Below are positions 21,155-40,129 of a stretch of DNA of 64,000 bases, in pieces. The notes under the pieces were generated by a model, which saw only the letters and a list, made by a program, of their open reading frames with translations, was not told where the DNA came from and ran no database searches. Within the stretch, counting starts at the first letter, position 1. Each line of letters starts with the position of its first letter. Both the position numbers and the translations under genes were made by a program. Origin of the DNA: a virus (Duplodnaviria; Caudoviricetes); IMG/VR virus record IMGVR_UViG_3300015606_001334, positions 32,001 through 96,000 of that record; one strand, given 5' to 3'.

Positions 21155-21606
21155 TAATGACCGGTGAGTTTAACGGTTCTTCTTATTTCGCGATCGACCT
21201 CGCGGTTCTTTTTGTCTTCACGCTTGTCGTAAAGCTTCTTACCCTTAGCTAGGGCAATCTCAAGCTTAACACGACGGTTCTTATAGTACATCTTCACTGG
21301 TACCAAAGTGAGACCAGAGATTTGAGTCTTACCAATCAGTTTGTCGATTTGGTGCTTATGAAGAAGCAGCTTACGAGTACGCGTTGGATCAAGAGACGTA
21401 AATTTGGTGTTGTTGCCGATAGGGGTAATGTTGCAACCAATCAGGAAAACTTCCTCATTGAGGACACGAACATAGGCTTCATTCAAAGAAACCTTCCCTG
21501 CAAGAATCCCCTTTACTTCCCATCCCTCAAGGACGAGACCACACTCGTAAAAGTCTTGAAGGAAGTACTCATGAGAGGCCTTCTTGTTATTCGCAATCGT
21601 CTTCAT
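21154..21606 (-). CDS. smpB: SsrA-binding protein SmpB
   Basis: NKKASHEYF, GLVLEGWEVK, DPTRTRKLLLHK, LAKGKKLYDKRE. Confidence 0.95.
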   Translation of the reverse strand: MKTIANNKKASHEYFLQDFYECGLVLEGWEVKGILAGKVSLNEAYVRVLNEEVFLIGCNITPIGNNTKFTSLDPTRTRKLLLHKHQIDKLIGKTQISGLTLVPVKMYYKNRRVKLEIALAKGKKLYDKREDKKNREVDREIRRTVKLTGH

Positions 21607-30801: not shown

Positions 30802-31329
30802 TCAGTAATTCTTGTATTGTAAACTGCCCTTTAGTTTTTTCTTCATTTCCAGCAAACCACCTTCAAAGCTATGTGTGAAATACACGTTATGGCTTTTGAA
30901 CGACTTATGCGCCAACGTCACCTTAACGTTTTGAGCTCTCGTGTATTTCGGATCGCAAGCAACAACTATCTGCTTTGATGACATTGGATTCCCTTGCAAA
31001 AGACCCAATTCGTACAAAGAGATTGGCGAAATCGTATCTGCTGCCAAGTGCATAAAGATGAAATGACATTTCGTGATTGAGTTCAATTCCCAATTGATTT
31101 GCTCAGCAATCAGAGCTTCATCGGGTGCAACTACTCTCCGTGGATTGTAGATACTAATGTCGAGGTCACGAAGTCGCCGAATAGCTTTTGCTTGCCAGTC
31201 TGGTGAATTGCCCATCTCAATCGTTCCAGCCAAGAAAATTGAAATGTCATCTTCTGAACCAATGTTTTCTGATTCAGGGGTAAACACCTTGGCTGGAAAT
31301 TTCGACTCAAGCAAAGCGTTGTATTTCAT
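30802..31329 (-). CDS. nucleoside 2-deoxyribosyltransferase-like protein
   Basis: IFLAGTIEMG..DWQ, YNPRR, QINWE, ISLYELG. Confidence 0.8.
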   Translation of the reverse strand: MKYNALLESKFPAKVFTPESENIGSEDDISIFLAGTIEMGNSPDWQAKAIRRLRDLDISIYNPRRVVAPDEALIAEQINWELNSITKCHFIFMHLAADTISPISLYELGLLQGNPMSSKQIVVACDPKYTRAQNVKVTLAHKSFKSHNVYFTHSFEGGLLEMKKKLKGSLQYKNY

Positions 31330-31727
31330 AGCAGCTTCAATTCTTTCGTGAATGGGTCGATTCTTTCAGGATAGTCCGGCCCGATACCAATGCAGGTGAG
31401 AGTAGGAACTCCACCAAACTCGGTCAAACCGCTATCAATGATCTTTGACACTGGAATTCCAAAAGCCAAGACATCTTCGTAAAGGGCTTCAAGAGCCGCC
31501 TCAGAATCGATACCAACGCAGATCTTCTTGAATGGACCATTCAGCCAAGCGTCAAGAGCGGAACCGACTGGAATGGTCAGCTTACGACGCTCATAGAGCT
31601 CGGTATATTCGGACTCCATCATGTTGAGAATGACGGCCATCGAAGCATGAGATGCTTGGGCTGCCATTTTACCTTTGCGCATGTTCAGATCGGTGCGCAT
31701 CACGATTACTTGTTTTGGTTGGCTCAT
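31326..31727 (-). CDS. pth2: peptidyl-tRNA hydrolase Pth2
   Basis: KQVIVMRTDLNMRKGKMAAQASHAS, KKICV, DSGLTEF, TCIGIGP. Confidence 0.92.
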   Translation of the reverse strand: MSQPKQVIVMRTDLNMRKGKMAAQASHASMAVILNMMESEYTELYERRKLTIPVGSALDAWLNGPFKKICVGIDSEAALEALYEDVLAFGIPVSKIIDSGLTEFGGVPTLTCIGIGPDYPERIDPFTKELKLL

Positions 31728-32376: not shown

Positions 32377-32693
32377 GTATGCTCAATAATCTTGATAGGT
32401 GTAGCCTTTATGCCGTCAAAGCAAATTACGCAAGGTTCCGCTGGAAGTGGTTCACCATTTGCTCCATATCTGAAAATTACCATTTTGTAGGCCTTTGAAA
32501 TATCTCGGCATTTATTGATTGCATCAATTTCTGCGTGGAGAAATATTCCCTTTTCTTTGCCTACTCGCTTAGCGTGATGAGCCTGCCTTGGATGGGTCTT
32601 TACGTAGGAGTTCTTTCCTATACTGAGAATTCTTCCACGTTTATCGTAGATGATTGCGGTGAGGTCGTATTGTTTTCTTGTTTTTCTGCACAT
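32373..32693 (-). CDS. zinc-dependent cytidine/adenosine deaminase-fold protein
   Basis: HAE...PCxxC (HAEIDAI; PCVIC). Confidence 0.8.
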   Translation of the reverse strand: MCRKTRKQYDLTAIIYDKRGRILSIGKNSYVKTHPRQAHHAKRVGKEKGIFLHAEIDAINKCRDISKAYKMVIFRYGANGEPLPAEPCVICFDGIKATPIKIIEHT

Positions 32694-33127
32694 TCAAAGT
32701 CTAGCTTTGCTTCTTCTAATAGTTTTAGACCTGCTTTGAGGTTGAAGTTTTCGTCAATCGTAAGATCATCAATTCGTTCAATTAACACCTCAATAGCTTT
32801 CTCAATGAAGCTATTGGCTTGGGTGTCAGTAAAGTCATCAATGTTGACCATCATCTGACCGATGTCAAATTCTTCTCCAGGAACTTCCTTAAGGAAATAC
32901 CAAACCTTTATCCCTAGGATCTGGACAACTCCATCTTTTCCTATGATTGGATGGAACTTGAATCGTACTCCGTCGGAGTTAATGACAGTTCTCTTAAATA
33001 CTAGCATAGATGAAGAAAGGATTGCTAAGTCTTTAGGCAAAGTCATTGGTTGAACGCCAACAATCTCTTGCGCAATAATACCTGGCAAGATTCTCCGAAT
33101 CTTCGGTATCAAAATCGACGGATTCAC
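32618..33127 (-). CDS. hypothetical protein with gp23 (major capsid)-like N-terminal segment
   Basis: IRRILPGIIAQEIVGVQPM. Confidence 0.55.
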   Translation of the reverse strand: MNPSILIPKIRRILPGIIAQEIVGVQPMTLPKDLAILSSSMLVFKRTVINSDGVRFKFHPIIGKDGVVQILGIKVWYFLKEVPGEEFDIGQMMVNIDDFTDTQANSFIEKAIEVLIERIDDLTIDENFNLKAGLKLLEEAKLDFECAEKQENNTTSPQSSTINVEEFSV

Positions 33128-33348
33128 CGACGCTTCTTCCAATCGTAGTCAGGACCGGTCACATCAAACCCCTGCTTACCGACGCAGTCAGGATGTTCCA
33201 CCGACATTACGATGAAACCCACATTTTCTCCTGTGTACTTGCGTTGGCGAAGCGCTTCGGAAAACTTCAACGCGTCGGTCATTTTGTCAGTGTCAAACAA
33301 CTCGCTCTTTGGAACAGACTCTTCTGTCCAATAAATCATGTACATCAA
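33124..33348 (-). CDS. hypothetical protein
   Basis: ORF track, coupled. Confidence 0.65.
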   Translation of the reverse strand: MMYMIYWTEESVPKSELFDTDKMTDALKFSEALRQRKYTGENVGFIVMSVEHPDCVGKQGFDVTGPDYDWKKRR

Positions 33349-33851
33349 ATTTCCTCAACTTCTTCAATTTCGTATTGGTGATCGGTCATACTATACAAAT
33401 CGTACGCGATCGAATAGGTGTTACCAAGTTCTTCAGGATTGATCACGTCAAAAGCGTTAATGCTGACCAAGAATTGCTTCTCAGCTTGGATTTTCTTTTC
33501 GTGGTATGCGATGTGTCTGGCTGCGTTACGAGCGTTAACTTCTGCATTGAACTTCTTGATTGTTTCTCGTTCTACCCGCATCTCTTTGGTGATTAGCCGT
33601 TGATCGATACCAGCAGGCCACTTTGGGATGTCGACAGTCTTTTCTTGCGTGGAATTATCGAATGGATTTTCAGCATTCCACTTGGCCTCAAAAGCCTCGA
33701 GCTTACCACGAATTTCGTCAATGGCTTTCTGTTTTAGCTCTTTTTCTTCCTTCAGCAATTCGATCTTATGAAGATCCCTAGACACAACAACGTTAGAACG
33801 CCACGTATCTTCATAAGAGCCACCAAAAGCAACAAGAATAAAAGCCATCAC
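33345..33851 (-). CDS. hypothetical protein
   Basis: ORF track, SD GGAG. Confidence 0.7.
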   Translation of the reverse strand: MMAFILVAFGGSYEDTWRSNVVVSRDLHKIELLKEEKELKQKAIDEIRGKLEAFEAKWNAENPFDNSTQEKTVDIPKWPAGIDQRLITKEMRVERETIKKFNAEVNARNAARHIAYHEKKIQAEKQFLVSINAFDVINPEELGNTYSIAYDLYSMTDHQYEIEEVEEI

Positions 33852-33895
33852 ATCATCTCCAGAAGTTTGTGAAATTATATCATAGCTTCATGAAA

Positions 33896-33926
33896 AAGAA
33901 AATAGGGAGAAACAAATCTCCCTATT
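33896..33926 (-). terminator. intrinsic terminator after release factor gene
   Basis: AATAGGGAGA-loop-TCTCCCTATT followed by TTCTTTTT on the minus strand. Confidence 0.8.
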
Positions 33927-33930
33927 AATC

Positions 33931-34617
33931 TTACCAAAGTAAATCAAAGTTTCCTGCGAGGACCTTTGACGTCAAATGCTTCTTTCCTGTCTGATGATCT
34001 TGAACCACGTCATCTTGGAAACGATACGTTCTGATCTTATCTCCTCTCATTCCTGAACCAACTTGACCTTTACGATCAGCCATTGTGATTGAGTAATGCT
34101 CACTTTGGGCTGATGAGTCCAATCTCTTGTTGAGTTGGCTCATTGCTTCAGCTAAGGAGTTTTCACGGCTTCTACATTGGGCGGTCTCTACCAATCCTGT
34201 AGGAAGATGGGTAATTCTTGCTGAGTTCTGGTGCTTATTACGGTGTTGTCCACCGGCTCCAGTACCAGAGTACCATTCAATTTTGAAGTCTGATTCAGAC
34301 CGTTTGTGGAATTTCTCAGAACTCTTGTCGTTGCAATCAATGACTGCGACAGTTACGGTTGAGGTATGAACTCGACCTTTACGTTCTGTTGGTGGAACTC
34401 TCTGGATTCGATGTCCACCTGATTCATTTTTGAGTTGGTTGAAGAACTCTTTGCTACACTCTATTTCTAGAGTTGTTACGCCGGGTACCTCAACCTTTTT
34501 AGGATTGAGTCAACCGACGCGATTAAGGAACTTAGAGTAAGCTTGAGCAAGGTCCTTAACGAACAACTTGCTATCGTCACCGCCTTCAGCGGCTCTAATT
34601 TCGATCTTAATACGCAT
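33931..34617 (-). CDS. class I peptide chain release factor, RF1-like, lacking domain 1, with in-frame TGA at codon 36
   Basis: SD TAAGGAG; MRIKIEIRAAEGGDDSKLF...NRVG*LNP...ESGGHRIQRVPPTERKGRVHTSTVTV...GAGGQHRNK..SARITHLPTG...KIRTY; 229 codons in one frame. Confidence 0.85.
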
Positions 34618-34627
34618 GATTTTCTCC

Positions 34628-35236
34628 TTAAAACGTATTTAGTTTATCAAAGCTATCTGCAAACATTTCTAAGCAGATTAAGTTACTACCTTTTGGCTGA
34701 CCTGGTAATGAGTTATCGTACATTCCATAGAAATCATCAAGTTGTTCTATCAAAAATCCTGTAAAACTCTGGCCATCAAAAAACTTGGAAAGATCAAATT
34801 TAAATTTCTCTTTCGACCTAATGTTGAATCCTGCAATGTCATCCTTAAATCGAGGGTCGGCAACGATAGACCTTATGAAGTTTTGTCCATCTTTAAATAC
34901 CGCTCCACCAACGAAGACTGACTTCTTCATTGACATCTTAAACCAGTACAAGAAAATTTTTGCGATCTTTTGGTTTCTAAATTTTGGAGTAATTAAAATT
35001 TTCTCTAACGAAAGAATTTCGTCAACTTCTTTAAACTGCAAGAACCCCACAAATTCATCATCGATTGTAAACATTCCAACATTTGTCTTATCCGCTAGTA
35101 GAAGCTTAAATTTATTTCCTTCGATTTCTTGAATGAGCTTCCCATTAGATCGAAAATATTCTTCCACACCATCAAGTTCTTTTTGTGAATGATTTATTTC
35201 TGTATCAACTTTTAGGGCGAGCTCAGTTAGCTTCAT
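34628..35236 (-). CDS. GNAT-like protein
   Basis: 'ILITPKFRNQKIA' resembles acetyl-CoA-binding motif A. Confidence 0.5.
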   Translation of the reverse strand: MKLTELALKVDTEINHSQKELDGVEEYFRSNGKLIQEIEGNKFKLLLADKTNVGMFTIDDEFVGFLQFKEVDEILSLEKILITPKFRNQKIAKIFLYWFKMSMKKSVFVGGAVFKDGQNFIRSIVADPRFKDDIAGFNIRSKEKFKFDLSKFFDGQSFTGFLIEQLDDFYGMYDNSLPGQPKGSNLICLEMFADSFDKLNTF

Positions 35237-40055: not shown

Positions 40056-40129
40056 TGGCAGAGCGTGAGGGAATCGAACCCCCATCTGCGGACTTGGAAA
40101 CCGTTATGTTACCACTACACCAACGCTCT
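40056..40129 (-). tRNA. tRNA-Trp(CCA) with destabilised anticodon stem
   Basis: AGAGCGT TG GTGT AGTGGTA ACAT A ACGGT TTCCAAG TCCGC AGAT GGGGG TTCGATT CCCTC ACGCTCT G CCA. Confidence 0.88.

Follow-up and report, generated by a model that had tools for sequence, protein, structure and literature searches.

A Shortened RF1-Type Release Factor Gene in a Large Wastewater Phage Carries a Conserved In-Frame UGA at a Site of Probable Recoding

Introduction

Among the genes of a large wastewater phage is one for a release factor whose reading frame meets a UGA at codon 36, and the question raised by this locus is whether that codon marks a damaged gene or a point at which synthesis of the factor is controlled. 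In prfB, encoding RF2, a premature stop is bypassed by a frameshift that competes with RF2-mediated termination and rises at low RF2 (PMC5009743, PMC12421855). An early in-frame UGA passed by read-through was once expected for RF2 genes and was not found, and an RF1/UAG counterpart of such an in-frame-stop design was unknown, according to a review of recoding published in 2016 (PMC5009743). A survey of prfB from 2025 detected no programmed frameshifting in prfA and saw no prfB cassette with TAG (PMC12421855). RF1 and RF2 genes also figure in surveys of huge and of recoded phages, which leave internal stops unmentioned (PMC7162821; 10.1101/2021.08.26.457843), and our full-text searches of the literature found no description of a short, recoding-gated RF1 family.

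The locus lies in a 64,000-nt stretch of DNA (hereafter the window, whose positions are used unless stated otherwise) that is part of a 359,550-bp virus record (G000), the genome of a wastewater phage of about 360 kb. A first-pass annotation had suggested that the UGA is read through by design, which would make the factor dependent on low RF2 activity or on a UGA-reading tRNA-Trp and turn it into a termination-sensing switch or a ribosome-rescue factor. The evidence presented below indicates a working gene that encodes a class-I release factor of the RF1 type, shortened to domains 2–4; how its internal stop is passed remains a matter of inference.

An RF1 Frame Interrupted at Codon 36

On the minus strand, the gene forms one 228-codon frame that runs from the ATG at 34617 to the TAA at 33933-33931 and is interrupted once. 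Its parts are as follows.

34624..34629, minus strand: Shine-Dalgarno (SD) sequence AAGGAG, 6 nt before the ATG
34617-34615, minus strand: start codon ATG
34513..34617, minus strand: codons 1-35 (sense), domain 2 strand and helix α5, including the EIRAAEGGDD tip
34510..34512, minus strand: in-frame TGA (codon 36), the putative recoding gate at the RF1 Trp position; next base C
33934..34509, minus strand: codons 37-228 (192 sense codons), the rest of domain 2/4 and the GGQ domain 3
34398-34387, minus strand: VPPT motif
34254-34246, minus strand: GGQ motif
33931..33933, minus strand: true terminator TAA
33901..33926, minus strand: intrinsic-terminator-like hairpin with a 10-bp stem and a T tract, directly 3′ of the gene

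The product likewise contains HTS and KIRTY motifs, and the layout given in the first-pass annotation, from the SD through the 35 codons, the TGA and the 192 further codons with their motifs, was confirmed on this strand. The AAGGAG overlaps the TAA (34630-34628) of a 202-aa ORF upstream. Around the gate the sequence reads GTC GGT TGA CTC and continues in frame 0, with no +1 CUU-stop cassette. A mechanical ORF list shows only an 87-aa TTG ORF (33931-34194) at the locus, because no ATG, GTG or TTG occurs within 105 codons after the TGA. In the Logan contigs that span the gate site, which come from three independent wastewater studies, no variant is listed. Contigs from RNA libraries cover 34495-34629 only and could stem from relatives or from DNA; being partial, they provide no evidence that the whole gene is expressed. 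Rfam gave no match in 33700-34800.

The Product as an RF1 Without Domain 1

With Trp placed at the stop, the 228-residue product matches the Pfam families PCRF (8.8e-24, positions 102-194 of 194) and RF-1 (5.9e-19). The best NCBIfam model is RF1 (NF001859 / TIGR00019), with 198.7 bits over model positions 106-333 of 347, and the RF2 model reaches 112.5 bits on the same product. The RF1 score lies below the equivalog cut-off of 400, and the full-length criterion, with N-terminal domain 1, is not met. Aligned to solved RF1 chains, the product corresponds to E. coli RF1 residues 113-340, and the TGA codon falls opposite the Trp of the T. maritima "..KGW" and the E. coli "..RRW". The alignment and the model ranking bear out the earlier proposals that the product is RF1-like without domain 1 and that the stop takes the place of an RF1 Trp. 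Domain 1 is absent because the open frame reaches just ~7 codons upstream of the ATG; no release factor domain was found in the upstream ORF, and the gene is the sole RF-1-domain gene of the whole genome.

An AlphaFold2 model (36 sequences, pLDDT 88.4) agrees with ribosome-bound RF1 (TM 0.82-0.85) and fits the closed crystal forms of RF1 poorly (TM ~0.53). In the modelled fold, a strand (residues 2-11) and helix α5 (residues 14-34) belong to domain 2, with codon 36 following directly. The 35-residue peptide and the 192-residue remainder would therefore belong to one domain. In published structures of RF1 on the ribosome, the tip of helix α5 (EGGDD here) reads the first stop-codon base. The RF1-type reading elements are all retained, namely Q-R-V-P-x-T (here Q-R-V-P-P-T) and H-T-S, and the conserved PPT tripeptide and the Asp at the α5 tip are slight departures from cellular RF1. 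Judged from these motifs, and without release data, the product should read UAA and UAG and not UGA.

PrfH (RF-H), which is paired with RtcB2, also has GGQ and lacks domain 1. The likeness to PrfH drawn in the first-pass annotation goes no further than the missing domain. The PrfH model (TIGR03072) gives 39.9 bits against a cut-off of 166.65 and matches the GGQ domain only, no match to RtcB was found anywhere in the genome, and here the stop-codon-reading motifs are intact. PrfH-like repair is thus unlikely on account of the low score and the absence of RtcB; a codon-independent role in ribosome rescue, the second function that had been suggested, is unlikely because the stop-codon-reading motifs are intact.

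Conservation of the In-Frame TGA

A first scan of viral contigs yielded 80 related loci. The codon alignment comprised 71 distinct sequences, which fall into 26 clusters when grouped at 80% identity and share as little as 53% identity in pairs. Codon 36 is TGA in 71/71 of these and never TGG. The other two invariant Trp columns, W115 and W228, are TGG in 71/71. Since the three columns are unmixed, TGA and TGG are not equivalent in this gene, and the pattern is far beyond chance. Synonymous sites are saturated (pS 0.77-0.81), and across the 26 clusters codons 2-35 have a pN/pS of 0.29 and codons 37-228 one of 0.33. The in-frame TGA is still found in genes down to 47% identity. The first-pass annotation had held that TGG in all close homologues would refute its reading; TGA proved to be conserved, with purifying selection on both sides and TGG absent, and this attempt at refutation failed.

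The start region is equally constant, with an ATG at the equivalent position behind a comparable strong purine-rich SD in 81/81 homologues. The terminal stops of the same 81 genes are TAA in 79 and TAG in two, with no TGA, and those of a wider TGA-gated set (n=106) are TAA in 97, TGA in six and TAG in three. In the DNA records of cultured phages no match to the gene was found, and at the protein level identity to cultured phage records did not exceed 39%.

One Site, Several Recoding Signals

More distant short RF1-like proteins were also found, some of which show Leu, Ile, Ala or His where the gate would be. The first scan and three further viral scans together provided 152 distinct viral short-RF1 genes, which were classified by the state of the site.

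In-frame TGA, single: 106 distinct viral genes
In-frame TGA, two: 2 distinct viral genes
In-frame TAG (L176): 1 distinct viral gene
+1 frameshift, CTT TGA: 20 distinct viral genes
+1 frameshift, CTT TAG: 9 distinct viral genes
+1 frameshift, CTT TAA: 1 distinct viral gene
Ungated (TTT/TTC, CTC, TGG and others; Phe, Leu or Trp codons): 11 distinct viral genes
Undetermined: 2 distinct viral genes

The share of viral genes with a recoding signal at this one position is thus ~92% (108 with in-frame TGA, 30 with +1 cassettes and one with TAG). The +1 cassette consists of GGAGG, a 3-nt spacer and CUU, followed by UGA, UAG or UAA, after which the release factor sequence resumes in the +1 frame. Examples are CGG AGG GGT CTT TGA CCT (L199) and CGG AGG TCT CTT TGA GTT (L247), from lineages that are just 57% identical. 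A FastTree phylogeny of the C-terminal parts shows strong clustering of the in-frame TGA, with 6 changes over 106 rows, and frequent switches between UGA and UAG within the frameshift clade. No difference in the tripeptide separates UGA-gated from UAG-gated genes. What is new here is the occurrence of an in-frame TGA and of a prfB-type cassette at the same site across 152 viral short RF1 genes.

The family also occurs on contigs from bacterial genomes. These hold 56 cassettes (45 CTT TGA and 11 CTT TAG), 11 genes with in-frame TGA (one of them with two) and four ungated genes; a further nine were either left without a class or assigned to a -1 class. Among isolates, examples of the frameshift form are Nannocystis, Minicystis (Minicystis rosea), Thiobacillus denitrificans, Achromobacter anxifer and Novimethylophilus, and examples of in-frame TGA are Jiella and Rhodovibrio. 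Genes with a GGAGG-like sequence and CTT TGA (L324, L327, L329, L343, L372-L375) are especially common in Myxococcota assemblies. Two phage contigs have their stop one codon past the aromatic position: TAG at L176:1600-1602, on a 466-kb contig (GGA TAT TAG ATG), and TGA at L177:1600-1602, on a 182-kb contig (GGG CTA TGA CTG).

A broader proposal can be made, for and against which we find the case about evenly balanced. The phage and bacterial short RF1 paralogues would belong together in a large class not described before, in which the gate has one fixed position and is passed by UGA read-through in some genes and by a prfB-like +1 shift at UGA, UAG or UAA in others. Programmed recoding would thereby be seen for the first time in RF1-type genes, including the in-frame-stop design once predicted and never found in bacteria, and the paralogues would act as sensors that top up termination when host release factors fall short during infection; in the phage studied here, its own tRNA-Trp(CCA) may also open the gate.

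Proposed Operation of the Gate

For the gene in the window, the explanation that we favor, with somewhat better than even confidence, is that programmed UGA-to-Trp read-through couples the yield of the factor to the efficiency of UGA termination, with RF2 and tRNA-Trp in competition. The dependence of yield on this competition would follow from the need to decode UGA in order to make the full factor. Translation would start at the ATG at 34617 and, for most ribosomes, end at the UGA of codon 36 with a peptide of 35 residues. A smaller number would decode the UGA with near-cognate tRNA-Trp, which would insert the residue that RF1 has there, and would complete the 228-residue factor. Its level would then be expected to rise whenever UGA termination is slow, whether RF2 is scarce or overloaded or tRNA-Trp is abundant. 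UAA and UAG end ~2/3 of this genome's genes, and the product may close a loop by taking UAA and UAG sites, which would free host RF2 for UGA and shut the gate. The loop through UAA is a conjecture, coherent but unproven. Read-through itself, with its rate and its response to RF2, and the codon specificity of the factor are likewise inferred, without protein or ribosome-profiling data.

The prfB-type cassette that relatives carry at the position of the TGA argues that the site is a gate on termination efficiency throughout the family. The in-frame form needs near-cognate decoding, which would account for an in-frame clade fixed on TGA and a frameshift clade that tolerates any stop. The idea of a termination-sensing switch thereby gains strong indirect support from the cassettes of sister genes, although a response to the level of RF2 has not been shown experimentally. 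As the stop in the frameshift clade switches (UGA in 20 genes, UAG in nine and UAA in one), the family as a whole is not bound to RF2 only; the name "RF2 sensor" may be too restrictive, and "termination-capacity gate" is the safer description. Two points count against this account. A factor that is RF1-type by its motifs would be gated by the one stop it is predicted not to read, which is not classical autoregulation, and 6/106 TGA-gated relatives themselves end in TGA.

The sequence around the gate fits weak termination. The preceding codon is Gly (GGC or GGT) in 70/71 genes, and the +4 base is A, then G, then C in order of frequency, and never T. The C that follows the UGA here had been read as a leaky UGA-C context, and it is not the conserved +4 base. 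At natural stops of this genome, a Gly codon precedes 0/140 TGA and 11/265 TAA, and +4 T follows 38/140 TGA. A U at +4 is the strong signal for termination in bacteria (PMC5289835). For Gly at -1 as a signal of weak termination, the literature search found only an apidaecin-specific effect. Separately, Gly makes up 6.2% of residues, and true stops seem to avoid Gly-UGA.

A conserved RNA structure 3′ of the UGA was sought with RNAalifold on 26 representatives and none was found, and in RNA folding the post-gate segment, ranked against windows of the same genes, comes out at a median of 0.33-0.37. Read-through without such a structure may perhaps reach only a few per cent. Two hairpins were considered and rejected: CUCAAU/GUUGAG in this window (-7.8 kcal/mol), which is broken in the nearest relative, and CCCGCC..GGCG, which is confined to one subclade.

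Alternative Explanations

The lack of a conserved stimulatory structure, together with the interchangeable stop of the frameshift clade, is what would be expected if the UGA were a fixed attenuator that sets a constant low yield of a factor harmful in excess, with nothing being sensed. Release factors are indeed toxic when overexpressed in B. subtilis (PMC12421855). However, a weak ribosome-binding site would suffice for this purpose, and a strong SD is present in 81/81 genes. That a full prfB-type cassette occupies this site in 30 viral genes and in 56 bacterial ones points instead to a regulated device, and a stop-codon gate of any kind must vary in output with release factor activity. We regard a fixed attenuator as unlikely.

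A second possibility is that the phage itself times the opening of the gate, in that its own tRNA-Trp(CCA) mainly opens the UGA and the factor appears only after the tRNA array is expressed. The tRNA in question lies close by.

40056..40129, minus strand: tRNA-Trp(CCA), candidate UGA reader, 5.5 kb from the release factor gene

It has a U11:A24 pair, unpaired A27/C43 atop the anticodon stem and a U31.U39 mismatch. Its A24 is the base found in the Hirsh UGA suppressor. In E. coli tRNA-Trp(CCA), the C27A change leaves the same top pair unpaired and raises UGA read-through ~2.5-fold (PMC13092985, 2026), a precedent for the unpaired 27/43 seen here. The release factor gene also stands beside tRNA arrays, both in this genome and in relatives. 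Against this, the tRNA-Trp recovered from eight relatives has a normal five-pair anticodon stem in 6/8, and all eight keep the TGA gate; the nearest relative (L082) has the same tRNA-Trp as here, and L073 has unpaired G27/A43. With most relatives' tRNA-Trp normal, an unusual tRNA-Trp cannot be the general mechanism, and such a tRNA would also weaken the ~155 natural TGA stops of this genome. By inference from its structure, the phage tRNA-Trp remains a real candidate for a gate opener in this phage, but that it should be the main one is quite improbable.

Direct autoregulation as in prfB, in which the factor itself would read UGA, or all three stops, and terminate at its own gate, has in its favor that the cassette of the sister genes follows prfB, a design with autoregulatory logic (PMC12421855), and that UAG and UAA gates exist. 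The PPT tripeptide and the α5-tip Asp could also be cited, as they differ slightly from cellular RF1. Yet the RF1-type reading elements are all kept, the RF1 model outscores that of RF2 (198.7 vs 112.5 bits), and the tripeptide is the same whether the gate is UGA or UAG, all of which make this explanation very unlikely.

The remaining explanations concern the integrity of the gene and of the code. Greedy ORF cover of the genome is 0.898 under code 11 and falls to 0.878 when TGA is counted as sense, and ~155 of the chosen ORFs terminate in TGA. ARAGORN found 45 tRNAs and a tmRNA in the whole genome, including a tRNA(CUA), and no credible tRNA(UCA); low-threshold "tRNA-SeC(tca)" calls had poor structures or were not reproduced. 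In a 524-kb relative, no tRNA(UCA) was present in the 60 kb examined, the rest of that genome being outside the search. The cover, the TGA-terminated ORFs and the missing tRNA(UCA) uphold the earlier statement that the genome is not globally recoded. With TAG as sense the cover is 0.907 vs 0.898, and the in-frame TAGs resemble N-terminal over-extensions. TAG ends only ~6% of this genome's ORFs, and the amber suppressor tRNA(CUA) (G000 119950-120023, minus strand, outside the window) also occurs in a 350-kb relative (L091:1149-1221).

In databases the gene appears on long contigs in two fragments, one of 35 aa that bears the name "release factor A" and one of 136 to 190 aa. Full-length forms with W come mainly from short contigs, most likely through the gene caller's choice of code 4. 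Such split and W-containing records might seem to point to a gene that is broken or wrongly sequenced, to a genome recoded for TGA throughout, or to a protein made in two pieces. These explanations are hardly credible given a TGA that is invariant at saturated divergence with both flanks selected, a standard code with no tRNA(UCA) found, no start codon after the stop, and first 35 residues that are integral to domain 2. The practical consequence is that gene callers fragment these release factor genes or apply code 4, which leaves them misannotated in public databases.

Relation to Known Recoding Systems

In phage Qβ, the A1 protein arises when UGA is read at low efficiency by near-cognate tRNA-Trp, which adds a C-terminal extension to a complete coat protein. 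The phage release factor gene differs in that its 35-residue short product would be useless and the read-through product alone could fold.

Like the short RF1 gene, prfB is a class-I release factor gene with an early premature stop whose bypass competes with termination, and sister genes of the short RF1 family carry the same GGAGG-NNN-CUU-UGA cassette. Unlike prfB, the gene described here is unshifted and would rely on read-through rather than slippage, its gate lies at the α5 end of domain 2 and not in domain 1, and its product, RF1-type by its motifs, should not read UGA. The short RF1 family supplies the in-frame-stop case that was once expected for release factor genes (PMC5009743), and read-through and frameshift solutions at the same codon of homologous genes offer a natural comparison of the two mechanisms.

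A viral termination factor that requires stop-codon recoding is also known from Mimivirus and Megavirus, giant viruses in which the class-I release factor gene uses read-through and frameshift (PMC5009743; Jeudy et al. 2012, PMC3521657). That gene encodes an eRF1 homologue in a eukaryotic virus and combines both events in one gene, whereas the phage gene encodes a bacterial RF1 homologue without domain 1 and has a single read-through site, the frameshift being found in other members of its family. Class-I release factors next to tRNA genes occur likewise in the recoded Jade, Lak and Agate phages (10.1101/2021.08.26.457843). There, TGA or TAG is reassigned genome-wide and the code-change genes are in standard code without internal stops, whereas the present genome is not TGA-recoded and the stop is inside the release factor gene itself.

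Genomic Setting

The phage has other translation genes as well. SmpB (184.7 bits) is encoded at 21169-21597 on the minus strand of the window and, with the tmRNA at 156013-156450 of G000 (minus strand, tag ANDESYRVAA), makes a complete trans-translation pair. A PTH2 peptidyl-tRNA hydrolase (PF01981, 100.7 bits) is encoded 2.2 kb downstream of the release factor gene (31326-31727, minus strand). A PTH2 homologue lies within 3 kb of the release factor gene in 5/80 related loci, and conservation of the gene's neighbors was not found beyond the nearest relative. Given the tmRNA, SmpB, PTH2 and 45 tRNAs, the factor fits a kit for the maintenance of translation during infection. This suggests that large phages monitor and supplement the termination capacity of their hosts, alongside their own tRNAs, tmRNA, SmpB and peptidyl-tRNA hydrolase.

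A 174-aa ORF (32618-33142, minus strand) matches only the first ~30 residues of T4 Gp23 (PF07068, residues 10-38); it is probably not a capsid protein and may carry a capsid-targeting or prohead-protease leader.
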